From an uncultured Oscillospiraceae bacterium (GTDB lineage Bacteria > Bacillota > Clostridia > Oscillospirales > Acutalibacteraceae): a stretch of 64,000 nt of DNA. Where the stretch lies: assembly GCA_900542375.1 (NCBI GenBank), contig UQNI01000001.1:2821-66820 (forward strand). Reading direction: 5' to 3'. The position numbers were made by a program, and so were the translations under genes. The notes under the pieces were generated by a model that saw only the letters and a list, made by a program, of their open reading frames with translations, did no database searches and was not told the DNA's origin. Below, piece by piece: positions 20,712-62,526 of the stretch (position 1 is its first letter; each line of letters opens with the position of its first letter).

Positions 20712-20740
20712 AAACTTTAATATTGTTTAAGCATTTCATA

Positions 20741-20778
20741 AAAGCCGAACTTTCTCAATTGAAAGTTCGGCTTTTTTC
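20741..20778 (+). terminator. Rho-independent terminator after htrA
   Basis: aagccgaactttc-tcaatt-gaaagttcggctt followed by ttttt. Confidence 0.8.
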
Positions 20779-20907
20779 TTTTTTTCGTATTCTGACTCGT
20801 TTTTGAAAAATTTTTTCACATCATATTTCCCTATTTAGGCGAATTTTCCACTCTTTTTTACGGTATAGTGAGGGGGTTTATATAAATAAAAGCATTAGGA
20901 GGACTTT

Positions 20908-21222
20908 ATGGAACATACAGAACAGGAAAAACAGACAAAATTAGTGGAAGGTCTTGAGCGCTTAGCTTTTGGTAATGTAACAGATGCCATTAAACTTTTG
21001 TTTTGTGATGAGTTAAATACCCGCATACTGAATAAATTGGACTTATTCAATATTTCTGAAATTAAGCGACCAAAAGGCGGAGGAATTGAAATCAAATTTT
21101 ATGACCGTTTGAAGGCGCTGCAATGCTTGCAGGAATTATACAATGGTCAGTCAAGTGATACTTCCGGCTTTTACCGTGCTTTGGAGCAAGGTGTGAAAAC
21201 ATTTGAGGAGGATGAATCTTAA
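20908..21222 (+). CDS. Short (104 aa) terminase small-subunit-like protein that appears to lack the usual N-terminal HTH
   Basis: LERLAFGNVTDAIKLL ... ISEIKRPKGGGIEIKFYDRLKALQCLQEL resembles the C-terminal half of P27/Terminase_2 small terminases. Strong RBS AGGAGG 6 nt before the ATG. Sits immediately upstream of terL. Confidence 0.6.
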   Translation: MEHTEQEKQTKLVEGLERLAFGNVTDAIKLLFCDELNTRILNKLDLFNISEIKRPKGGGIEIKFYDRLKALQCLQELYNGQSSDTSGFYRALEQGVKTFEEDES

Positions 21223-22473
21223 TTGATATTTCAATCATTCTCAAAAAAACAGCTGCAGGCATTAAGCTGGTGGTATCGAGGCAGTCCGTATGCCTCTTAC
21301 ACAGCTGTTATTTGTGACGGTGCAGTCAGAAGCGGAAAAACCTTATGTATGAGTATTTCGTTTTTTCTCTGGGCTTTTTATCAATTTCAAAATCAATCGT
21401 TTGCCTTCTGCGGTAAAACCATACGCTCTTTAAGGCGGAATTTAATCACCCCTGTTTTACCGATTTTGAAGGAGTTGGGTTTTCAATGTCACATTCATTA
21501 TTCAGAAAATTGTTTGAGTGTAATCTTTCAAGGACGAAAAAATCGATTCTATTTGTTTGGCGGTAAAGATGAAGGTTCGGCAGCAATGATACAAGGTATT
21601 ACGTTAGCAGGTGTTATGTTTGATGAAGTTGCCTTGATGCCGCGCTCTTTTGTGGAGCAAGCTTTGGCAAGATGCTCTGTAGAAGAGGCAAAGTTTTGGT
21701 TCAACTGTAATCCGGAGCATCCTCAGCATTGGTTTTACCAAGAATGGATTTTAAAAACCAAACAAAAACAGGCGTTATATTTGCATTTTACAATGGAGGA
21801 TAATCCGTCGTTGTCCCCAAAGGTGCGTAAGCGCTATCATTCTTTGTATTCAGGTGCGTTTTATGAACGCTTTGTTTTGGGAAAATGGGTAGCGGTACAA
21901 GGTCTTATCTATCCTTTTATGACTCAAGATAGATTTTGCGATACACCGAAAGGAGCATTTGAGGAATATGTGGTATCCTGCGATTACGGCACCATTAATC
22001 CTTCCTCCTTTGGTTTGTGGGGAAAACAACAAGGGATTTGGTATCGTCTGGAGGAATATTACTATCATTCCCGTTTGACGGGGATGTCCCGCACGGATGA
22101 GGAACATTATGCAGGATTGGTAGCTTTAATCGCAGGTCGTCCGGTTGCCAAAATTGTGGTAGACCCATCTGCCGCCAGCTTTATTGCGGTTATTCAGCGT
22201 CATGGAGCGTATTTGGTTCTTCCTGCAAAGAATGACGTGGTAGATGGTATCCGTGCAGTGAGTGTTGCTTTAAAACAAGGGGATATCCGAATTTGCAATA
22301 CTTGTACGGATACGATTCGTGAATTTGGTTTATACCGCTGGAACGATTCCATGCACAAAGATATGCCGATTAAGGAAAATGACCACGCTATGGATGACAT
22401 TCGCTATTTTGTTTCTACCGTTTTATCAGAAAGAAGTGACGATTTTTTTGTTATGGCAACGCAGCGCTGTTGA
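21223..22473 (+). CDS. Phage terminase large subunit (PBSX XtmB-like)
   Basis: Walker A DGAVRSGKT, Walker B-like VMFDEV, C-terminal nuclease-like region with HAMDDIRY. TTG start directly after the terS stop. Confidence 0.85.
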   Translation: MIFQSFSKKQLQALSWWYRGSPYASYTAVICDGAVRSGKTLCMSISFFLWAFYQFQNQSFAFCGKTIRSLRRNLITPVLPILKELGFQCHIHYSENCLSVIFQGRKNRFYLFGGKDEGSAAMIQGITLAGVMFDEVALMPRSFVEQALARCSVEEAKFWFNCNPEHPQHWFYQEWILKTKQKQALYLHFTMEDNPSLSPKVRKRYHSLYSGAFYERFVLGKWVAVQGLIYPFMTQDRFCDTPKGAFEEYVVSCDYGTINPSSFGLWGKQQGIWYRLEEYYYHSRLTGMSRTDEEHYAGLVALIAGRPVAKIVVDPSAASFIAVIQRHGAYLVLPAKNDVVDGIRAVSVALKQGDIRICNTCTDTIREFGLYRWNDSMHKDMPIKENDHAMDDIRYFVSTVLSERSDDFFVMATQRC

Positions 22474-22518
22474 TTTATTTCAGTACGGCGCAGTCGACAT
22501 AGAAAATACCAACAACAG

Positions 22519-23748
22519 ATGATAGAGAAAAAAGAAGGGATTTTTTCATTGAATTTCATGAGAAAACAAGGACAAGAGGGGAAAAAGAAGAAAAAAGAAC
22601 AAGCTTTAGAAAGTAAGACAGTTGACGCTACCATGGCAGTCCAAACTGTTGGTAAACAAGATTATTTTGTTTGGCAATGTTGTGAGAATAACATTGCTGC
22701 GGAGCGGCAGCTTTATACTGCATTAAGAGGTGCAGTGCCGATTATTGATTCTGCCATTCATAAATTGCTTCGTATTATTGGAAATTTTACTGTGGAATGC
22801 GAGGATAAACAGGTGGAAAAAGAGCTGCATTCTTTTCTGGACCACGTAAAGGTGAATACGTATCAACAAGGTATTTACAGTTTTATCAGCTGCTATTTTG
22901 ACCAGTTGCTTACTTATGGTACAGCAGTTGCTGAGATAGTTCCTACCATAGGAGGCGATGATATTGGTGCATTGTATGTAGCTGATTTGGACAACATTGA
23001 TTTAATGCATAACGATAAAACGTTATCCGTGGATATTTATGTAAAAGATAACTTTGGGGAAAGAAAGCCGATTCCATATCCGGATTTGATTTTAATGACA
23101 GCACTCAATCCGCCTCACGGCAGTGCACATGGCGTTTCCATTTTAAGAGGGTTGCCGTTTGTCAGTGAAGTGCTTCTGAAAATTTATAAATCCATTGGTA
23201 TGAACTGGGACAGAGTTGGTAACGTCAGATTTGCAGTTACCTACAAACCGACCAGTGACCCCATGGACCGTGCGTATGCAAAAGAACGTGCACAGCAAAT
23301 TGCCACAGAGTGGAGCCGTGCTATGCGCAGCGGCGATATCAGTGATTTTGTGGCAGTGGGTGATGTAGGGATTAAAGTCATTGGCGCGGACAACCAGATT
23401 TTAGATAGTGAAGTACCTGTACGTCAGATGATGGAGCAGATTATTACAAGGCTTGGATTGCCCCCGTTTATTTTAGGATTGTCGTGGTCCTCGACCGAAA
23501 GAATGTCCAGCCAGCAGGCGGATGTTTTAACAAAAGAAATGGAAGCTTACCGTATGCTGCTGAACCCTTCTATTGAAAAAATATGTTCCCTTTGGCTTAC
23601 ACTGCATGGTTATGATACCTCTTTTGAAATTGTATGGGATACCATTACCATGCAGGACCGTGTAGAGGAAGCCGATGCCAGATTAAAACACGCACAAGCA
23701 GAGAAACTGGAATGGGAAACTGAAAAGGAAAAGGAGGGAAAACAGTGA
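22519..23748 (+). CDS. Phage portal protein
   Basis: Position after terL, ~400 aa in size, portal-like sequence. Exact start codon uncertain. Confidence 0.65.
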   Translation: MIEKKEGIFSLNFMRKQGQEGKKKKKEQALESKTVDATMAVQTVGKQDYFVWQCCENNIAAERQLYTALRGAVPIIDSAIHKLLRIIGNFTVECEDKQVEKELHSFLDHVKVNTYQQGIYSFISCYFDQLLTYGTAVAEIVPTIGGDDIGALYVADLDNIDLMHNDKTLSVDIYVKDNFGERKPIPYPDLILMTALNPPHGSAHGVSILRGLPFVSEVLLKIYKSIGMNWDRVGNVRFAVTYKPTSDPMDRAYAKERAQQIATEWSRAMRSGDISDFVAVGDVGIKVIGADNQILDSEVPVRQMMEQIITRLGLPPFILGLSWSSTERMSSQQADVLTKEMEAYRMLLNPSIEKICSLWLTLHGYDTSFEIVWDTITMQDRVEEADARLKHAQAEKLEWETEKEKEGKQ

Positions 23749-24734
23749 ACGGAGCCATTATCAAACATATGCAAACAGATATGACGCACGACTTGGAATG
23801 CATCAATCAATATACACGCAGGCCATTTACGGAACAGGAAGTATATACGTTTTCCGTGGTACTTTGTGACAACGAAATCGACCGTGATTTTGAACGGTTC
23901 AGTGTAGAAGCATTACATACGTTAAGTCAATTGTTTTTAGGAAAAACAGGCATTTTTGACCATAATATGAAAACAGGTAATCAAGCGGCGCGTATTTATG
24001 ATACAGCAATGGAAACTATGGAAGAAAAAATGACTTCTTATGGAGAACCGTATACTCGTTTGGTAGCAAAAGCATACTTGCCGCGATGTGAAAAAAACAC
24101 AGATTTGATTATGGAAATTGAAAGCGGTATGAAAAAAGAGGTAAGCGTAGGTTGTGCTGTTGCAGAGAGAATTTGTTCTGTTTGTGGTGCGAACCAAGTA
24201 TTCGCACCATGTAACCATAAACAGGGAAAGCGTTATGAAAAAAACGGAATAAAAGAAGTCTGCCACGTTGTTTTGAATCAGCCGACAGATGCATATGAAT
24301 GGTCTTTTGTGGCAGTACCTGCTCAGCGAGAGGCGGGGGTCATAAAGATGTTTGCAAAGACGAAAGGGGGAATGACGGTGGAACAAATCATTCAAAAAAT
24401 GAAAGAGACTCAAGAGGGGCTATTCCTTTCCGAAGAAGAAATCAGAAAAATGCTCAGACATCTGGAACAAATGGAAGAATATGCAGCGTGCGGAAAAGCA
24501 TACAGGGAAGAAGTAAGCCGCAATGTAGTCAAACTTTGCGGTTTGGCACAGCCTCAAATTTCTTCTGAGGTGATGAAGCGTGTGACAGAAGGTATGAGTT
24601 TAGATGATTTAAAAGTCTTTGAGAAGGCATTTCGCACAAAGGCGGAAGAAGTGATTCCACTTTCTCCGCAGTTGGCTGTGGCAAAAGAGAAAGAATACAA
24701 GAAAAACAGCCCAAATCAGGCATTTAAAATTTAA
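23745..24734 (+). CDS. Prohead protease / scaffold fusion (XkdF-like)
   Basis: GTGA overlap with the portal gene. N-terminal protease-like motifs (GIFDHNM, KKEVSVGC). The C-terminal half is helical and charged, like a scaffold. Confidence 0.55.
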   Translation: MNGAIIKHMQTDMTHDLECINQYTRRPFTEQEVYTFSVVLCDNEIDRDFERFSVEALHTLSQLFLGKTGIFDHNMKTGNQAARIYDTAMETMEEKMTSYGEPYTRLVAKAYLPRCEKNTDLIMEIESGMKKEVSVGCAVAERICSVCGANQVFAPCNHKQGKRYEKNGIKEVCHVVLNQPTDAYEWSFVAVPAQREAGVIKMFAKTKGGMTVEQIIQKMKETQEGLFLSEEEIRKMLRHLEQMEEYAACGKAYREEVSRNVVKLCGLAQPQISSEVMKRVTEGMSLDDLKVFEKAFRTKAEEVIPLSPQLAVAKEKEYKKNSPNQAFKI

Positions 24735-24746
24735 GGAGTTGAATAT

Positions 24747-25088
24747 ATGAAAGTGTCATTAAACGGTTACGGTGAAAGCGTAACTACATTTGAAGCAGAA
24801 GACAGTGTAAGAGCGGGTTATCCTGTTAAAATGACCGGTAACGGCAAAGTTGGTTTATGTACGGCCAAAGAAGCATTTTGTGGTATTGCACTCAATGTCA
24901 GAAATGGTTTTGCAGCAGTACAGCTGCAGGGTTACTATAGTGGGTTGCCATACACAGGTTCCGGTATGAAGGTTGGAATCTTAAAACTTGGCGCTACTTC
25001 TGATAAGGCGGAAGTATCTGAAACAGGTAAAGAGTGTCTGGTAGTAGATATAGACAGTGAATCTTCTACCTGCGGTATTATTCTTTAA
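24747..25088 (+). CDS. Small head-associated protein (DUF2190-like or decoration protein?)
   Basis: 113-aa ORF between the protease/scaffold and the major capsid gene. Function inferred from position only. Confidence 0.4.
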   Translation: MKVSLNGYGESVTTFEAEDSVRAGYPVKMTGNGKVGLCTAKEAFCGIALNVRNGFAAVQLQGYYSGLPYTGSGMKVGILKLGATSDKAEVSETGKECLVVDIDSESSTCGIIL

Positions 25089-25106
25089 TTGGAAAGGGAG
25101 AATCAA

Positions 25107-26117
25107 ATGGCTTTTTATGATAATTTAAAATTGGAAAAAGGAATGTACAATTCCGGTAATAAAAGTTTTACACAAGTATTGGAAGAACTGGACTGTTCCA
25201 AAAACTATGAAGGAACAGAGTTGGAAGGTTTGGATGCTTATCAGCGTCAATTAAAACGTTTTGACATTAAAGTAGGAGGCAGAAGCTCCGATGCGGTAGA
25301 AAAATTTTTCCAAACCAGTGACAGCGCTGCCTTGTTTCCCGAATATGTAACACGTGCAGTAAAGCAAGGTATGGAGTATGCGAATTTACTGCCTTCTATT
25401 GTGGCCACCACTACTACAATTCAGTCTATGGATTACAGAACCATTACAGCGTCTCCCAGTGAGGATGACAAAGAATTAAAGCCTGTGGTGGAAGGTGCCC
25501 AAATCCCTCAAACCGTAGTCAGAACACAAGATAATCTGGTAAAACTTCATAAAAGAGGCAGAATGCTGGTGTCCTCCTATGAGGCGTTGCGTTTCCAGAA
25601 ATTAGACTTATTTACGGTGACATTACGTCAAATTGGCGCGTATATCGCCAGAGCACAATTGAAAGACGCAGTAGATGTCTTGCTCAACGGTGACGGAAAC
25701 GACAATGCGCTAACACCTACCTCTTTATCTTCAAAACCTACTTATACGGATATTGTAAAACTCTGGGGTGAATTGGCTCCATATGAACTAAACACCATGT
25801 TAGCATCGACTGTAACCATGCAGGATTTATTAAATATTGACGAATTTAAAGATGCAACAGCAGGTTTGAATTTTCAAGGTACAGGCAAACTTGTCACACC
25901 TTTGGGAGCGAATTTGCTTCATGTTCCGTCTTTGAAAGACAAAACCATTATTGGTCTTGATAAAAATTGTGCATTGGAAATGGTACAAGCAGGTGATGTT
26001 ATCACAGATTATGATAAACTGATTGACCGTCAATTGGAACGTGCAACCATCAGTACCATTGCAGGCTTTGCAAAAATCTTTACAGGCGCTGCAAAAGCGG
26101 CTTCTTATACTGCTTAA
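25107..26117 (+). CDS. Major capsid protein (HK97-fold, XkdG-like)
   Basis: GGGAG RBS. ~336 aa. Position and sequence pattern typical of PBSX-like major capsid proteins. Confidence 0.7.
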   Translation: MAFYDNLKLEKGMYNSGNKSFTQVLEELDCSKNYEGTELEGLDAYQRQLKRFDIKVGGRSSDAVEKFFQTSDSAALFPEYVTRAVKQGMEYANLLPSIVATTTTIQSMDYRTITASPSEDDKELKPVVEGAQIPQTVVRTQDNLVKLHKRGRMLVSSYEALRFQKLDLFTVTLRQIGAYIARAQLKDAVDVLLNGDGNDNALTPTSLSSKPTYTDIVKLWGELAPYELNTMLASTVTMQDLLNIDEFKDATAGLNFQGTGKLVTPLGANLLHVPSLKDKTIIGLDKNCALEMVQAGDVITDYDKLIDRQLERATISTIAGFAKIFTGAAKAASYTA

Positions 26118-26129
26118 TTAGGTTTTATT

Positions 26130-26486
26130 ATGGAAGAAGTATTGAGAAGGTTTGCAAGACTTGCAGGACTGACAGTGGAGGAAGCGGAACAATGGCAGGA
26201 TCTTTGCGGTGACGCTTATGTTTTGCTGGAATCACAAAGAAAAAAACAGAAAGATGCTTCTTGTGTTGGAGATTTGGTTTGTGCTGCTGCCGCTGCGTTG
26301 GCATTTTACCAATATACATTACATCAAAATGCTGCAGGTCAAGCTGATTTTACCGTAGGAGATGTGCGCATTTCTCACAACAGCAAAAGTGTGGAGTGGG
26401 CAAAAGATTTTTGGCTTGAGGCGCGCAGTCATGCTGCTCCGTTATTGAAAGACCCGGATTTTGGTTTTTGGGAGATGAAAATATGA
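26130..26486 (+). CDS. Head-tail connector (gp6-like) protein
   Basis: 118 aa, immediately after the capsid gene. Helical N-terminus typical of head-tail connector / DNA-packaging proteins. Confidence 0.4.
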   Translation: MEEVLRRFARLAGLTVEEAEQWQDLCGDAYVLLESQRKKQKDASCVGDLVCAAAAALAFYQYTLHQNAAGQADFTVGDVRISHNSKSVEWAKDFWLEARSHAAPLLKDPDFGFWEMKI

Positions 26487-26824
26487 AAAAAAGTGCGTAT
26501 TTAAAAACTATGTTTCAAACATACGGAAATGAGATTACGGTGTACCCAAAATATAAAAAAGAATATCAAGTAAAAGGATTTATTCGCCCGTTGTCTTTTC
26601 AACATTTACCTTCTTCCAATGAGCTGGGCATTCCTTTTGACCATACGGATGACGGCGGTTACTTGTATCTTGGTCCGGCTGAATACCGCATTGACAGGGA
26701 ATTGGAGGAAACCAAACTGGAACAGGATGACGTCCTATATTGGGTTACAAAATCCAGGGCAGTCTATCTGCAAAATGAGCCAATCTATGTTTGTGCGATA
26801 CTGCAGAAAGTTGTAGCATCGTAG
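26483..26824 (+). CDS. Head closure / head-tail adaptor protein
   Basis: ATGA overlap with the preceding ORF. 113 aa. Phage_H_T_join-like pattern (ITVYP ... YRIDRE ... YWVTKS). Confidence 0.4.
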   Translation: MKKSAYLKTMFQTYGNEITVYPKYKKEYQVKGFIRPLSFQHLPSSNELGIPFDHTDDGGYLYLGPAEYRIDRELEETKLEQDDVLYWVTKSRAVYLQNEPIYVCAILQKVVAS

Positions 26825-26837
26825 AAGGAGAATCGTT

Positions 26838-26966
26838 ATGGAAGAATTATGGAATCAAACACCAAAAGATATTTTTGATACCAACACTGTCTCATCTGTT
26901 TCTGACCAATTGGAGCAAGATTATCGCAGATATGCACATAAGTTAGACGAAGAGGTGATTGGTTAG
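26838..26966 (+). CDS. 42-aa hypothetical protein (absent from the ORF track)
   Basis: My translation is MEELWNQTPKDIFDTNTVSSVSDQLEQDYRRYAHKLDEEVIG. RBS GAAGGAG upstream. Its stop overlaps the next start (TAGTG). Confidence 0.35.
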   Translation: MEELWNQTPKDIFDTNTVSSVSDQLEQDYRRYAHKLDEEVIG

Positions 26967-27496
26967 TGGTACCTCTTATGAAATTCAAAGATTTTATATG
27001 GAGTAAAAATCCCGAAACATTCAATATTTCTATTACAAGAGACATTAAGGAATTGTCGATTCCTTTTCATGGTTCCGTGATGCAGGATTACGGAGAACAG
27101 AAACGAATAATCAAAGGAGAAGGCGAGTTTTCGGGAAAACGATGTATGGAGACATATCAAAAGCTGGCAGCATTGTTTGAAAGCGGAGAAAGCGGCGTAT
27201 TATCATTGCCTAATTTTCCTGCTTTCATTGCAAAGCCTGTTTCTCTTTCTTATATGACTGTAACAAGACCGGATATTCTCCGTTATCAGTTTGTATTCTG
27301 GGAAGACAGCAAAAATTCTGTTTCAGTACCTGAAATCTCCCGGTTTCGTATGCATGTTACGGTGAAAGAAGACGGAGAAAATTTATGGACCATTGCACAA
27401 AAGGAACACACAACGGTAGAAGAACTGCTTCGGCTCAATCCCCACATTGTATGGCCCAGTTATTTAACAGAAGGTTTGCAGGTGACTTTGCCATGA
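26966..27496 (+). CDS. LysM-domain tail/baseplate protein (XkdP-like)
   Basis: C-terminal LysM HVTVKEDGENLWTIAQKEHTTVEELLRLNPHI...GLQVTLP. GTG start after GAGGTG. Confidence 0.65.
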   Translation: MVPLMKFKDFIWSKNPETFNISITRDIKELSIPFHGSVMQDYGEQKRIIKGEGEFSGKRCMETYQKLAALFESGESGVLSLPNFPAFIAKPVSLSYMTVTRPDILRYQFVFWEDSKNSVSVPEISRFRMHVTVKEDGENLWTIAQKEHTTVEELLRLNPHIVWPSYLTEGLQVTLP

Positions 27497-28416
27497 ACTA
27501 TTGCTGCTATACGGTAAGTGGTAAAAAAGTTGCATTATTGCCTCCTATTTCTGTTCAAATCAATGTGCATGAAGATGCTCCTGCCGATGATATGACGGTT
27601 ATATTCCCGCTTATAGAACAAGTGCCAAAGATAGCAACTATACGTGTTTGGAATGGTGAAAAACCAATATTTTCAGGAATCATAGATGAGCAAATCATGG
27701 GAGTGACAAAAAATGGAGCCATGTTAAAATTAATTGCTCGCAGCAGGGCAGCATTGCTTTTGGATAACGAAGCCATGCCACAGGAATATCACTATCCTTC
27801 CTTGACTCAACTGTATGAACGACACGTAGAACCGTATGGATTTTGTGGCTTTATCGGCAATGGGGGAACGTTTGATACAAAGATGACCATCACCAAAGGA
27901 ATGAGTGAATGGCAAGTCATTGAAGAGTTTTGTGTCAGATGCTTTGGAACGATTCCTTTTGTAACAGCTGACGATTATATTGATTGCAGCGGGGCAGTCC
28001 CAAACGAGCAGCTGGTATTTGATAACAGCGATGCGTCGTGTATCCCTTATTTGTCGATTCTTTATCGTGATAAATTTTATAAACGAGTCAGTGAATTGTA
28101 TATACAGCCAAAGCTGGGACAGGCATATACTTCTGTTGTGCATGATGACCAAGCACATAAATTAGGTGTACAGCGCAGACGATTTGTGGTCTCCAATAAT
28201 TATAGAGGAACACGCATGATTGACAGTGCAAAACGAAAGGCAGTAGAAGTAACGGTTGTATGTGCGGGAGGCATTTGTGGTTCTTTAAAAATGCCTGTTG
28301 TTATTTCCGATGCGATTTTGGGTACCATTGATAAATTGAGTATTGCAGGCTGGACCTATACGCTGAACAGTAATGGGGAACGCTGTGAATATTTGCTGAG
28401 AAAAGAAGATATTTAA
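27493..28416 (+). CDS. Baseplate hub protein (XkdQ / P2 gpD / Mu gp44-like)
   Basis: ATGA overlap with the LysM gene. ~307 aa. Position and size match XkdQ. Confidence 0.55.
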   Translation: MNYCCYTVSGKKVALLPPISVQINVHEDAPADDMTVIFPLIEQVPKIATIRVWNGEKPIFSGIIDEQIMGVTKNGAMLKLIARSRAALLLDNEAMPQEYHYPSLTQLYERHVEPYGFCGFIGNGGTFDTKMTITKGMSEWQVIEEFCVRCFGTIPFVTADDYIDCSGAVPNEQLVFDNSDASCIPYLSILYRDKFYKRVSELYIQPKLGQAYTSVVHDDQAHKLGVQRRRFVVSNNYRGTRMIDSAKRKAVEVTVVCAGGICGSLKMPVVISDAILGTIDKLSIAGWTYTLNSNGERCEYLLRKEDI

Positions 28417-28438
28417 TGATAAGAAATGAGTTGATACG

Positions 28439-28783
28439 ATGTGGATTTCACAAAAAGTAGGCGCTTTGGAACAACCGAGCGCCCAGATACAAGTAGGGGA
28501 AGTACTTAGTAATACAGGCAGTCTTTCCATACAGGCTGTGGGACAATACAGTGCAGTGCCCCTAGCGGCTCCGTTTGGAATTACTTATGTACCGCCCAAA
28601 GGAACAAAGGTAGTTTTGTTGGAAGAAGAGGATACGGTATTGTGTACGGGGGCAATTTCCGAGTCTATAAATTTATCTGAAGGGGAACTGATGCTGCGTT
28701 CTTCAGGCGGAGCATATATCTACTTGAAGAATAACGGAGATATTGTCATAAATGGACAAGTATTTCCTCTGCAATCAACTTGA
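28439..28783 (+). CDS. Baseplate spike/hub protein (XkdR / gpV / Mu gp45-like)
   Basis: 114 aa. GELMLRSSGGAYIYLKNNGDIVINGQ resembles gpV/gp45-type baseplate assembly proteins. Confidence 0.5.
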   Translation: MWISQKVGALEQPSAQIQVGEVLSNTGSLSIQAVGQYSAVPLAAPFGITYVPPKGTKVVLLEEEDTVLCTGAISESINLSEGELMLRSSGGAYIYLKNNGDIVINGQVFPLQST

Positions 28784-29120
28784 GGAGGGGATTTCCATAG
28801 ACAGTTTGATACAAAACGGGGATACGTCTGCCATTTTAGTCAGCGGCAGGCGGGAGTTATTGCAGCGAGTTTGGATACAGCTGACAGCGCATCGAGGGGA
28901 ATTTCCTTACTGCGGAACGCTGGGCAGCAGATTGTACCAAATTGCTGCAAGCGATTCCAAATGTGAACAGAAGGTATTGGAAGCAATAGAAGAAGCATTG
29001 GAGTTCATACCGCAGGTTAGGGTAAAAGATGTAGTCATTGCAGAGAAAACAATTACAGTTTATATAGAAACGGAATACGGAGACGACGCTTTACAGTTTT
29101 CACTGAAAGGAGGAGAGTAA
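28752..29120 (+). CDS. Baseplate wedge protein (XkdS / GPW-gp25-like); start uncertain
   Basis: About 120 aa, immediately upstream of the Baseplate_J gene. LLQRVWIQLTAHRGEFPYCGTLGSRL is gp25/W-like. Confidence 0.55.
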   Translation: MDKYFLCNQLEEGISIDSLIQNGDTSAILVSGRRELLQRVWIQLTAHRGEFPYCGTLGSRLYQIAASDSKCEQKVLEAIEEALEFIPQVRVKDVVIAEKTITVYIETEYGDDALQFSLKGGE

Positions 29121-30185
29121 ATGGAAACGTATGAGGAAATTTTAGAAAGAATGAAACAAACCTTTGCACAGCAAGCAGGTTATGAAGTAGAAAAAAACAG
29201 TGATTTGGAAATACGAATGCAAGTATTGGCAGGAGAACTTTACAGTTCATTTGCAAACATAGAATGGTTAAAGCGTCAGGTATTTCCTCAAACAGCTACG
29301 GGAGAATATTTGACGATGCACGGCACACAAAGAGGACTTGTGAGAAAGGAGTCTCAAGCGGCAGTAGGAAGTTTAACTTTTTCCAGAACCAGTGCGCTGA
29401 GTTATGATTTGCCCATTCCCGTTGGAACTGTTTGTGCTGTAGATAAAGAGGATACGGTACGATATATTACAACAGAAGAGGCAACCTTAAAGGCAAATGA
29501 ATTGAGCGTGACTGTAAAAGCAAAGGCGAAAGAAGGAGGCCGTAACGGTAACACGGCTGAAAATACCATTCAAATTATGATTACTCCTCCTTCCGGAATT
29601 AAGGCAGTGACAAATGCAGAACCATTTATTGGCGGCATGGATGCTGAAGATGACAATGCATTTCGTGCACGTTTATTAAAAAGTTACGCAAATATTTCCA
29701 ATGGAACCAATGCTGCATTTTACAGGGAATTGGCAATGAAACATCCGTCCGTTTATTCCGCAGGTGTAGTTGCAAAAGATGACGGAGTTGGAACGGTTTC
29801 CGTATATGTGGCTACCAGAGGCGGCGTGCCGTCTGATGAAGTCATAGAAGAATTACAAAACCAATTCGATGAAGCAAGGGAATTAAATGTAGCGGTAACC
29901 GTAAAACCGGCGGTTTTACAAAAGATACCGCTGCGGATTCAAATCAAGCCTGCAGAGCAGTATTCGTTTGAGCAGGCCAAAGAGATTTGTATGCAAGTCG
30001 TTGATGATTATTTTGCGCAGATGCATATTGGTGGTATTTTCCGTGTTGCTGAATTATGTAGGAACATGTTGGAATCGGGTGCGATTGTCAATCACTTTAC
30101 ACCTCCGGGAGAAGATTTTTCAACGCCGCAAAATAAATTGGTTGTGAAAGGCAATATTATCATTGAGGAAGGCGGCGTGATATAA
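29121..30185 (+). CDS. Baseplate J-like protein (XkdT / P2 gpJ / Mu gp47)
   Basis: 354 aa. N-terminus METYEEILERMK ... DLEIRMQVLAGELY and overall pattern typical of Baseplate_J. Confidence 0.8.
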   Translation: METYEEILERMKQTFAQQAGYEVEKNSDLEIRMQVLAGELYSSFANIEWLKRQVFPQTATGEYLTMHGTQRGLVRKESQAAVGSLTFSRTSALSYDLPIPVGTVCAVDKEDTVRYITTEEATLKANELSVTVKAKAKEGGRNGNTAENTIQIMITPPSGIKAVTNAEPFIGGMDAEDDNAFRARLLKSYANISNGTNAAFYRELAMKHPSVYSAGVVAKDDGVGTVSVYVATRGGVPSDEVIEELQNQFDEARELNVAVTVKPAVLQKIPLRIQIKPAEQYSFEQAKEICMQVVDDYFAQMHIGGIFRVAELCRNMLESGAIVNHFTPPGEDFSTPQNKLVVKGNIIIEEGGVI

Positions 30186-30186
30186 G

Positions 30187-30672
30187 TTGAGTATTTCATT
30201 TACAGCAATGCAAAATGCTTTGCTTGCAAACGGAATGTATGAAATCACAGAAGATACAAGACTATATGCAGAATTAAAAGCTTATGATGCCGGCTTTCAA
30301 ACGCTGCATGACCAACTGGATGAATTATTGCAGGAAGCATTGATTCCAACAGCGGTTTCTTATGGTTTAGAAGAAAAAGAATTGTTATTTGGTTTGCATC
30401 TCAGCTCCTGCACGGAAGAAGAAAGAAGAAAACTGTTATGCATGCGTGGTGCCGTTAATGTAAATTCCTTTAGCAAAGCGGACTTTTTGAACATATTACA
30501 ATCAGGAGGGATTGAGGCTGAAGTGACCGAATCTCCAAGCACACAGCATATAGGCGTACAGGTGTTGTCTGTAAAAGACGGCCAAACACAGCAAGATACG
30601 CAAAAAGCTGTTTCTGATTACATCCCTGCTCATGTGGAATGTACGGTTACATTTGCAAGTGAAGCAGAATGA
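30187..30672 (+). CDS. XkdU / P2 gpI-like baseplate protein (DUF2313-like)
   Basis: 161 aa directly after Baseplate_J. TTG start. Position and size match XkdU. Confidence 0.5.
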   Translation: MSISFTAMQNALLANGMYEITEDTRLYAELKAYDAGFQTLHDQLDELLQEALIPTAVSYGLEEKELLFGLHLSSCTEEERRKLLCMRGAVNVNSFSKADFLNILQSGGIEAEVTESPSTQHIGVQVLSVKDGQTQQDTQKAVSDYIPAHVECTVTFASEAE

Positions 30673-30731
30673 TTTGGATGTTTGAGTGTATAAGTATCAA
30701 AATTTTGGGTTAAATAAAATAGAGAAACAGG

Positions 30732-30760
30732 TTGGGGCAATGTTTGGCATTGCCCCAATT
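30732..30760 (+). terminator. Hairpin closing the phage-derived operon
   Basis: TTGGGGCAATG-loop-CATTGCCCCAA, with a weak T tract. Confidence 0.5.
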
Positions 30761-30906
30761 GTCGTAATAGAAGGAAATCACTTGTATTTTCTGCTTTATT
30801 ATACTATCATTAAGATAAACATTTTTTAAGAAAATACAGTGATTAAAAATATAATTTAACGTGTTGGTACAGAAACATTCAGGCAAAACAAAGGGGGAAC
30901 AAGTAA

Positions 30907-62006: not shown

Positions 62007-62080
62007 GCGGGTGTAGTTCAATGGTAGAACTCCAGCCTTCCAAGCTGGTCGCGTGGGTTCGATTCCCATCACCCGCTCCA
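62007..62080 (+). tRNA. tRNA-Gly (anticodon TCC), CCA encoded
   Basis: Manual cloverleaf: acceptor GCGGGTG/CACCCGC, anticodon loop CTTCCAA, T-arm GGGTTCGATTCCC. Confidence 0.9.
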
Positions 62081-62090
62081 CATTACAAAT

Positions 62091-62167
62091 GCGCTGATAG
62101 CTCAGCTGGATAGAGCAACTGCCTTCTAAGCAGTAGGCCAGGGGTTCGAATCCCTTTCAGCGCGCCA
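62091..62167 (+). tRNA. tRNA-Arg (anticodon TCT), CCA encoded
   Basis: Acceptor GCGCTGA/TCAGCGC, anticodon loop CTTCTAA, T-arm GGGGTTCGAATCCC. Confidence 0.9.
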
Positions 62168-62170
62168 TAT

Positions 62171-62248
62171 GGTGGGTATAGCTTAGTTGGTTAAAGCGCC
62201 AGTTTGTGGCACTGGAGACCGTCGGTTCGAATCCGACTATCCACCCCA
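62171..62248 (+). tRNA. tRNA-His (anticodon GTG) with G-1, CCA encoded
   Basis: Extra 5' G, anticodon stem CCAGT/ACTGG, loop TTGTGGC, T-arm GTCGGTTCGAATCCGAC. Confidence 0.88.
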
Positions 62249-62292
62249 TTTGTACATAACACAGAATATACTATTACATTCTGTGTCTATAT

Positions 62293-62367
62293 TGGGCTGT
62301 CGCCAAGCGGTAAGGCAACGGACTTTGACTCCGTCATTCGTAGGTTCGAATCCTGCCAGCCCAGCCA
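62293..62367 (+). tRNA. tRNA-Gln (anticodon TTG), CCA encoded
   Basis: Acceptor TGGGCTG/CAGCCCA, anticodon loop CTTTGAC, T-arm GTAGGTTCGAATCCTGC. Confidence 0.9.
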
Positions 62368-62450
62368 AATATTCTGCCAAAAAAGGCAGAAAATTTTGTT
62401 GACAAGAGCAGAAAAATCTGCTATTATATATAAGTTGTCATTTTTATGAC

Positions 62451-62526
62451 GATCCATTAGCTCAGCTGGCAGAGCACCTGACTTTTAATCAGGGTGTCCG
62501 GAGTTCGAATCTCCGATGGATCACCA
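62451..62526 (+). tRNA. tRNA-Lys (anticodon TTT), CCA encoded
   Basis: Acceptor GATCCAT/ATGGATC, anticodon loop CTTTTAA, T-arm CGGAGTTCGAATCTCCG. Preceded by its own TTGACA-17-TATTAT promoter at 62398. Confidence 0.9.

Follow-up and report, generated by a model that had tools for sequence, protein, structure and literature searches.

A shaft-less, phage-derived operon next to hflX in gut Oscillospirales as a probable domesticated, gene transfer agent-like element

We analysed a stretch of 64,000 nucleotides, called the window here, from an uncultured Oscillospiraceae bacterium that GTDB places in the Acutalibacteraceae (assembly GCA_900542375.1, contig UQNI01000001.1, positions 2,821 to 66,820 of the forward strand). 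The window contains a phage-derived operon of 9.8 kb in which 15 co-directional open reading frames (ORFs) on the + strand occupy positions 20908-30672 between htrA and hflX, as a first-pass annotation of the sequence had listed them. These genes, g01 to g15, run from a small terminase (TerS) and a large terminase (TerL) through a portal, the major capsid protein (MCP) and neck proteins to a baseplate module. The flanking genes are those of the host, with a response regulator (RR), a histidine kinase (HK) and HtrA on the 5' side and HflX, GNATs and arg genes on the 3' side. Overlapping junctions that had been cited as signs of translational coupling are present in the sequence (GTGA at 23745, ATGA at 26483 and 27493, and TAGTG at 26964). 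The GC content of the element is 0.39-0.43, and both GC and skew are the same as in the flanks. Codon usage, judged host-like by eye in the first-pass annotation, is also host-like when measured as relative synonymous codon usage (r of 0.957, compared with 0.956 between two halves of the host genes).

Features of the operon and of its boundaries, in window coordinates
Feature	Position	Strand	Assignment	Support or remark
Upstream terminator	20740..20775	+	intrinsic terminator closing htrA; upstream boundary of the element	strong; 15-bp stem then T-run
Upstream motif	20826..20876	+	conserved motif TTTCCCTATTTAGGCGAA ... ACGGTATAGTGAGGGG; candidate promoter or regulator site of the operon	function putative
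g01	20908..21222	+	TerS, 104 aa, without the N-terminal DNA-binding part	Terminase_2 positions 58-129 of 141 only; dN/dS 0.04-0.05
g02	21223..22473	+	TerL, PBSX family, ATPase and nuclease	TIGR01547, Terminase_6N, phrog_2; dN/dS 0.05-0.06
g03	22519..23748	+	portal; true start probably ~10 codons downstream	phrog_30703 E 2e-129; Phage_portal
g04	23745..24734	+	scaffold-like head protein, putative, from position	phrog_16951 E 6e-94 (unknown function); kept in 79 loci
g05	24747..25088	+	small virion structural protein	phrog_4588 E 3e-17; dN/dS 0.05-0.06
g06	25089..26117	+	MCP; probable start ATG 25107, 336 aa	Phage_capsid_4 (PF25209) E 7e-18; phrog_3922 E 8e-97; dN/dS 0.02-0.03
g07	26130..26486	+	neck/head-completion protein 1, ~115 aa	conserved family here in 39 loci; putative role, from position
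g08	26483..26824	+	neck/head-completion protein 2, ~115 aa	conserved family; fused to tail-tube domain in some relatives
g09	26838..26966	+	42-aa vestigial tape-measure C-terminus (putative), motif LEQDYRRY	own Shine-Dalgarno; dN/dS 0.04-0.15; hhalign
g10	26966..27496	+	tail-tube initiator, C-terminal LysM (Mu gp43 / XkdP position)	LysM and weak DNA_circ_N (Mu gp43 N-terminus) match; AlphaFold2 model
g11	27493..28416	+	baseplate hub (Mu gp44 / XkdQ type)	PDB profile matches; phrog_177 (baseplate hub)
g12	28439..28783	+	central spike candidate (Mu gp45 / XkdR position)	weak 9ki1_V match; phrog_25991; assignment from position
g13	28752..29120	+	gp25-like sheath-initiator/wedge protein; start uncertain	weak 9euf_L and 8v3w_L PDB matches; orthologues PF10934 Sheath_initiator
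g14	29121..30185	+	Baseplate_J wedge protein (Mu gp47 / XkdT)	PF04865 E 4e-49; phrog_6
g15	30187..30672	+	Mu gp48-like distal wedge protein; candidate receptor contact	Phage_Mu_Gp48 E 1e-7, below gathering score
Downstream hairpin	30732..30758	+	11-bp hairpin 3' of g15, before hflX; weak terminator	poor T-run on + strand

TerL scored 170.9 bits against TIGR01547, the PBSX-family equivalog (cutoff 105), and an alignment of 20 orthologues had a mean column identity of 75% with invariant Walker A (DGAVRSGKT), Walker B (DE) and nuclease acidic residues. TerS from the hflX-linked shaft-less forms tested (the window, L028 and L170; compared loci are given L numbers) covered Terminase_2 positions ~54-127 only. 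Full-length TerS (positions 1-127) was found in the sheath-bearing L021, in L042, L062 and L047, which have the head genes only, and in the virome phage L001. A TerS without its DNA-binding part is a hallmark of gene transfer agents (GTAs), and here it suggests that packaging specificity may have been lost. In combination with the intact TerL this is consistent with non-specific headful packaging.

Among the head genes, the portal is called as 399 aa in sister species and the MCP as 336 aa in L002 and L171. The label of protease or scaffold that g04 had been given is positional and found no support, since g04 had no match in Pfam or NCBIfam and its phrog family is of unknown function. NCBIfam also gave no match for g05, g07, g08 and g11-g13, PDB profile searches with g07 and g08 returned nothing significant, and g07 received no annotation from any of the database searches (Pfam, phrog, NCBIfam and PDB profiles). 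In Caproiciproducens-type relatives the second head-completion protein (hc2, the g08 type) is fused in frame to a tail-tube domain to give one ORF of 224-292 aa (L022:13771-14445, L039:13859-14533, L078:13756-14439; also L015, L016, L026 and L045). This unusual fusion indicates that g08 physically adjoins the tube position.

From g10 to g15 the genes are in the order LysM protein, hub, spike, gp25-like protein, Baseplate_J protein and gp48-like protein, which is that of Mu gp43-gp48 and of XkdP-XkdU in PBSX. This order had been proposed at the outset and held up, with g12 and g13 the weak assignments. A profile of 31 g11 orthologues matched 3d37 (E 1.6e-7), 1wru, which is Mu gp44 (E 7.6e-4), and 3cdd (E 1.2e-3) in the PDB. 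The profile match of g12 to the Mu gp45 puncturing device (9ki1_V) was weak (E 0.037). The longest ORF of g13 overlaps g12 by 32 nt (window 28752-28800); relatives start ~14 codons later, and the call in a sister species is 79 aa. The AlphaFold2 model of g10 came from a shallow alignment, with a mean predicted local distance difference test score (pLDDT) of 64 and an unreliable N-terminal 45 residues. Foldseek matched it, at E 1e-5 to 1e-4, to LysM tube-initiator chains from phiCD508 (9g8s_S, E 1e-5) and from the baseplates of three extracellular contractile injection systems (eCISs). The fastest-evolving gene is g15, with the highest dN of the operon (0.075-0.093), and its product might contact the receptor.

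No tail shaft is encoded between the neck and baseplate genes. Queries built from relatives found no homologue of sheath, tube or neck protein X in the whole 64-kb window, and scans of the operon found no integrase, repressor or other regulator, fibre, holin, endolysin or replication gene, in agreement with the gaps first listed for it. Neither in the window nor in the relatives inspected was there a gene for lysogeny, integration, replication or lysis within 10 kb on either side. What remains at the tape-measure position is g09. The first-pass annotation listed it simply as a 42-aa ORF; it is a real, conserved gene, and a fuller reading of it is as the stub of a tape measure. With hhalign the g09 family aligned to the C-termini of the proteins found at the tape-measure position in relatives with a sheath (probability 87%, E 4e-6), and throughout the family the ORF directly 5' of the LysM gene has the C-terminal motif S..ERDxRRY. 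A phmmer search of g09 against 1.84 billion representatives returned only close relatives and a spurious plant repeat protein, and the link to tape measures is based on hhalign together with a family-wide survey of motif and length. On these grounds the best reading of g09 is that the hub-anchoring end of a tape measure has been retained while the ruler part has gone. Tape-measure proteins span ~1.5 Å per helical residue, so 42 aa corresponds to approximately one tube ring.

The region between the neck and the LysM gene takes four forms in the relatives. In form (a), the L021 type, it consists of the two head-completion genes (hc1 and hc2), neck protein X, sheath (349 aa, Phage_sheath_1), tube, chaperones and a tape-measure-position protein of ~100-300 aa. 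Form (b) has hc1, hc2, X, tube and a small ORF, and form (c), which is hflX-linked and found in Caproiciproducens, has hc1 and the in-frame hc2-tube fusion. Form (d), that of the window, has hc1, hc2 and a small ORF. The tube profile made from the relatives matches the PDB tail tube 8q01_A (E 9e-6) and XkdM-related chains. In a survey of ~90 loci, the ORF at the tape-measure position was 96-298 aa long in the 19 loci with a sheath, 25-78 aa where only a tube was detected (bar one ORF-extension artefact) and 25-58 aa where neither was detected (bar artefacts). The missing shaft is therefore the end of a graded reduction series, which argues against a fresh deletion.

Other relatives are built along similar lines. 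The sheath-bearing L174 and the tube-only L175 are structural-only clusters of ~11-13 kb among host genes, without integrase or repressor. L175 (8236-19835) lies at another conserved host site, between degV and rimP-nusA, which shows that the family is found in more than one core-gene neighbourhood. In the 'head-only' relatives (L061:10957-11874, L042:14074-14889 and L062:10478-10924) the last protein encoded has neck protein X as its N-terminal half. The C-terminal ~120 aa of this protein in L061 and L042 is homologous to an ORF of ~155-180 aa that lies 3' of the gp48-like gene in baseplate-bearing elements; in L062 the terminal protein (148 aa) is the X part only. Most relatives have this ORF between the gp48-like gene and hflX, and it is absent in the window clade, L028, L040, L059 and L026. 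The domain that it shares with L061 and L042 may be a receptor-binding part. The whole family looks GTA-like and short-tailed, with the hflX-linked lineage the most reduced.

To describe how the element is distributed we used the portal. It has more than 7850 homologous clusters at 90% identity, and at least 509 of 600 candidate stretches from GTDB species representatives encode a relative of it. Among the matches listed, all that are named belong to Clostridia of the Acutalibacteraceae/Oscillospiraceae group, and the portal is 99% identical in the uncultured Ruminococcaceae metagenome-assembled genomes (MAGs) UMGS1071 and UMGS404. An identical portal protein is present in 40 collection blocks and the g10 protein of a sister species in 840, with the same context in every longer contig inspected. 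Several portal homologues (P0032, P0033, P0045, P0068, P0073 and P0074) are publicly named 'serine/threonine protein phosphatase', which is plainly a misannotation and conceals the element in genome records. IMG/VR has 389 contigs with relatives, the best 80 of them mostly 4-13 kb, and contains the element of the window as predicted viral regions (L090-L092). When the whole element was searched by megablast, no INPHARED phage matched it. By tblastn the portal matched only six INPHARED records, all at less than 60% identity; five are unannotated human-faecal virome contigs and the sixth is Microcystis phage MACPNOA1 (27% identity).

We surveyed architecture by tblastn of all window proteins against the best 80 GTDB loci. 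The baseplate module is present in 46 of these, and in 20, which are species-level genomes, hflX lies directly downstream of it, many also having RR-HK-HtrA upstream. This hflX-linked set includes Faecalispora sporosphaeroides, Caproiciproducens galactitolivorans and C. faecalis, Scatolibacter rhodanostii, Candidatus Acutalibacter stercoravium and Clostridium sp. CAG:1013. The strictly shaft-less (tube-less) layout was seen again in L011, L012, L013, L028 and L170, at portal identities of 54-76%. The identity of the portal, hub, Baseplate_J protein, MCP and TerL to those of the window correlates with that of HflX (Spearman rho 0.62-0.89). The ratio of nonsynonymous to synonymous substitution rates (dN/dS), estimated by the Nei-Gojobori method against the two closest species (dS 0.04-0.47), was 0.02-0.34 across all 15 genes, as compared with 0.01-0.13 in the flanking core genes. 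This indicates purifying selection on every gene of the operon. The element has kept its place between the walRK-like htrA cluster and hflX through speciation. In-frame stops occurred in tblastn matches to the portal, MCP, hub and g13 at several loci; we rejected these as evidence of pseudogenes because all were at match ends, and we disregarded a portal dN/dS of 0.72 against L011 that such stops had caused.

The boundaries of the operon were also studied. Terminators had been noted on both sides, which is confirmed for the strong upstream one; the downstream hairpin, in a 235-bp spacer between g15 and hflX (window 30673-30906), has a poor T-run. The motif upstream of terS occurs once in the window, has a TATAGT 21 nt 3' of TTTCCCTATTTAGGCGAA, and is common to species down to 73-76% portal identity. 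It is kept in the window, L010, L025, L011 and L012 and partly in L028, and its spacing does not match canonical sigma-70. A scan for sigma-70 promoters showed no enrichment over shuffled sequences, and an Rfam scan of the region gave nothing above threshold. We found no att-like or flanking direct repeats and no tRNA adjoining the element. A cluster of five tRNAs (Gly, Arg, His, Gln and Lys) at window 62007-62526 is unrelated to it.

Together, these data suggest that the operon is probably a domesticated, vertically inherited, phage-derived GTA-like element, or viriform, of the Acutalibacteraceae/Oscillospiraceae lineage. Domestication was one of two origins considered in the first-pass annotation, and synteny, dN/dS and host-like codon usage support it. 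We propose that TerS without its DNA-binding domain and the catalytically intact PBSX-family TerL would fill portal-bearing HK97-type capsids, probably with host DNA and without sequence specificity. The neck proteins g07 and g08 would then close the portal. With the ruler cut to the g09 stub and the sheath and tube genes gone, a Mu-type baseplate could sit straight on the neck. In this baseplate g10 would form the LysM tube-initiator ring, g11 the hub, g12 the spike and g13-g15 the wedge, and the g09 stub would lie within. The predicted outcome is a short, podovirus-like particle of myovirus ancestry, for which lysis, regulators and any fibres would be encoded by the host elsewhere.

Several observations weigh against this proposal. 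The element is known here from its genes alone, the search for shaft, fibre and lysis genes covered the 64-kb window of the genome, and some assignments are weak (a model of modest confidence for g10, weak matches for g12 and g13). We know of no phage or GTA that docks a contractile-type baseplate directly on the head. The operon encodes neither a fibre nor a receptor-binding protein nor a wall-degrading enzyme, so a tube-less passage of DNA through a Gram-positive wall lacks an explanation. Some copies are disrupted. In L002 (GCA_047031555.1), from the same species and 99.9% identical over 21 kb, 5/7 indels are in terL (L002:8790-9800, corresponding to window ~21300-22260); a net 3-nt deletion turns GKT of Walker A into GKP, the reading frame is shifted by later indels and terL is uncalled. 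This is either a terL-dead 'cheater' strain or an assembly error. On a sister-species contig (L172:10528-11450) the hub gene g11 is split into 130 and 171 aa, while it is intact (307 aa) in L171 and L173. The disruptions in L002 and L172 reflect either loss in some strains or errors of assembly. Finally, terS and terL are absent at the locus in L033 (4703-10000), L035 and L038, of the Clostridium sp. CAG:1013 / Candidatus Acutalibacter stercoravium clade, where the portal adjoins host transporter and sugar genes (MatE, EamA, glucosamine-6-P isomerase and ECF). The terminase is lost or relocated in this clade, which means that DNA packaging is not universally tied to the module.

Other explanations differ in what they make of the missing genes. 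A prophage remnant in neutral decay after deletions, the other origin considered at first, would account for the phage ancestry, the many absent modules and the sporadic disrupted copies of terL in L002 and of the hub gene in L172. However, dN/dS is low for every gene, the ORFs are intact across genera, synteny is kept in the 20 species-level genomes, the TerL catalytic residues are invariant and the tail is reduced in graded steps. Neutral evolution, a lineage-specific deletion and close relatives with a complete prophage at this locus were looked for and not found, and we consider decay highly improbable. The element might instead be a phage satellite of the capsid-forming kind that makes its own capsids and baseplate and takes a tail shaft or fibres from a helper prophage. 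Its capsid and packaging genes without a complete tail resemble those of capsid-forming phage-inducible chromosomal islands (cf-PICIs), and IMG/VR flags the region as viral. Yet no integrase, excisionase, replication or regulatory module lies within 10 kb on either side in any relative inspected, the chromosomal position is fixed, the genes co-diverge with hflX, att repeats are lacking and codon usage is that of the host. We know of no satellite that supplies a baseplate but not a tube, and a satellite seems quite improbable to us.

A GTA with a normal tail encoded at several loci is harder to dismiss, though still unlikely. The operon would supply heads and baseplates, with the genes for sheath, tube, tape measure, fibres and lysis at other chromosomal loci, comparable to the accessory loci of RcGTA from Alphaproteobacteria. 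Known GTAs are multi-locus; the baseplate, fibre and lysis genes of FpGTA from Faecalibacterium prausnitzii are at a second locus 125 kb away (PMC12946183). The gp25-like 'sheath initiator' g13 is also kept though no sheath gene is present, and the tail-gene search spanned only 64 kb of the genome, in which no sheath, tube or X homologue was seen. In relatives that have sheath and tube, however, both are in their canonical place inside the operon. The ruler at the tape-measure position has been kept but cut to 42 aa, which would specify approximately zero tube length, and over the ~90 loci the ruler varies in length according to whether sheath and tube are present. If a full-length ruler were encoded separately there would be no need for g09, which purifying selection nonetheless maintains. 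The suggestion in the first-pass annotation that the tail genes are elsewhere in the genome is thus disfavoured. Somewhat less remote, but in our judgement rather unlikely too, is a particle that benefits the host without gene transfer. It could be a DNA-filled capsid for release or storage of extracellular DNA, a PBSX-like particle for killing or adhesion, or a baseplate that acts independently of the head. PBSX packages DNA yet acts as a bacteriocin (PMC12946183), no fibre or injection apparatus is recognisable here, LysM suggests peptidoglycan binding, and a sister clade has the head and baseplate genes without an adjacent terminase. On the other hand, R-type killing needs contraction of a sheath, which is absent, and across genera the genes for head and baseplate are kept together in one operon with translational coupling. 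The genes for TerL and TerS rank with the most constrained ones, which argues that DNA packaging is central in this lineage.

If the operon is a GTA-like viriform, its relatives may form an undescribed, order-wide family of such vertically inherited elements in gut Oscillospirales. We put this forward tentatively. The family would descend from a short-tailed contractile ancestor by stepwise miniaturisation of the tail (tape measure from 298 to 25 aa), and the window would be the end state, with a Mu-type baseplate on a DNA-filled head. To our knowledge this morphotype does not occur in any phage or GTA. A full-text literature search found no description of the element. The family could also lie behind the 'orphan' GTA-like packaging in human gut viromes, which involves host DNA of 4-10 kb. 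Gut Oscillospirales have been shown to shed host DNA in capsids on a large scale and in GTA-like fashion (PMC12946183). GTA-like packaging of 4-10 kb host DNA fragments has been reported for several Ruminococcaceae, Oscillospiraceae and related gut taxa, including CAG-115, Onthomonas, UBA11524, UMGS856 and Ruminococcus_C callidus, with the loci unidentified, and among the MAGs examined in that study F. prausnitzii alone yielded a strong candidate operon (PMC12946183). The present family is a candidate for the locus behind this orphan packaging in the other taxa. The element and its family give concrete candidate loci for abundant, mostly uncultured gut taxa, with a portal relative in more than 500 GTDB species representatives, thousands of protein clusters and several cultivable carriers, among them Faecalispora sporosphaeroides DSM 1294, Caproiciproducens species and Scatolibacter rhodanostii. 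They are also a natural experiment on how tail length is determined, as the tape measure shortens from ~300 to ~25 aa while first the sheath and then the tube is lost. Particles, if confirmed, would have a new architecture in which a contractile-type baseplate is mounted directly on the head.

As a comparison, one of the closest known systems is PBSX (xkd), a defective phage-like element of Bacillus subtilis, to which the element is similar in its PBSX-family TerL (TIGR01547 above cutoff) and in the order of its baseplate genes. Both are chromosomal elements of Firmicutes, and PBSX capsids are too small for a full phage genome. By contrast, PBSX has a sheath (XkdK), a tube (XkdM), a chaperone, a long tape measure (XkdO), fibres, holin and lysin, an Xre repressor and the sigma factor Xpf, none of which is found here; neither a regulator of the Xre or Xpf kind nor a lysis cassette lies in or next to the operon. 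PBSX contracts and kills, and it is confined to a few Bacillus species, whereas the element is syntenic across two families. Genes g10-g15 are also in the order of Mu gp43-gp48, with g11 matching gp44-type hubs, g12 weakly gp45, g14 Baseplate_J and g15 Phage_Mu_Gp48, and the model of g10 superposes on LysM tube-initiator chains such as gp61 of phiCD508. The baseplates of Mu and phiCD508 nucleate a long tube and sheath with a tape measure of hundreds of residues, unlike that of the element, which has a 42-aa ruler and no tube or sheath gene. Tailocins and eCISs have sheath and tube and no capsid genes; the element has a complete head module and neither sheath nor tube. It shares with cf-PICIs its own capsid, portal, terminase and head-completion proteins and the lack of a full tail. 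However, cf-PICIs are mobile and helper-dependent, carry an integrase, regulators (alpA/stl-like) and replication genes, and have no baseplate, whereas the element has none of these mobility modules and a fixed locus. Of the features of integrated prophages, namely an integrase, att sites, a repressor, replication genes, atypical composition and a patchy distribution among strains, none was found for the element.

The features of GTAs fit better. The operon consists of phage-like structural and packaging genes and has no module for replication, integration or lysogeny. Synteny, the correlation of identities, dN/dS and codon usage point to vertical inheritance under purifying selection. By its Terminase_2 coverage, TerS lacks the sequence-specific DNA-binding domain, with which specificity would be lost. 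RcGTA is likewise a vertically inherited, structural-only head-to-tail cluster under purifying selection, without replication or integration genes and with regulation and lysis encoded elsewhere by the host. As cited in PMC12946183, its TerS has no DNA-binding domain (Sherlock et al. 2019). RcGTA differs in being of an unrelated lineage and in having a siphovirus-type tail with a tape measure, compared with a Mu-type contractile baseplate and no shaft; random packaging and transfer of DNA have been demonstrated for RcGTA, and the element is known from genes alone. FpGTA (Borodovich et al., Nat Commun 2026, PMC12946183) is the nearest published system. Its head operon is ~10 kb long, its TerS is without the DNA-binding domain, and its capsids, which show no tail, hold random host DNA amounting to ~8.5 kb. 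It is similar to the element in the size of the head operon, in its TerS and in a host of the same bacterial order. However, FpGTA has an MCP of the N4-gp56 family, a Prp-like protease and a podovirus tail nozzle (Supplementary Data 2, PMC12946183), whereas the element has a Phage_capsid_4 MCP with no N4-gp56 match in NCBIfam, a PBSX-family TerL and a Mu-type baseplate in the same operon. The element is probably a domestication independent of FpGTA, set apart from it by the published annotations. We also considered L061, on a contig of a Faecalibacterium-labelled MAG, as FpGTA I and rejected it on the basis of the N4-gp56 MCP, nozzle and Prp of FpGTA; in a search with the L061 MCP none of 120 listed matches, most of them nameless, was to a protein named Faecalibacterium or F. 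prausnitzii. Set beside these systems, what is new is an element of the GTA or viriform kind with an unusual, shaft-less architecture.

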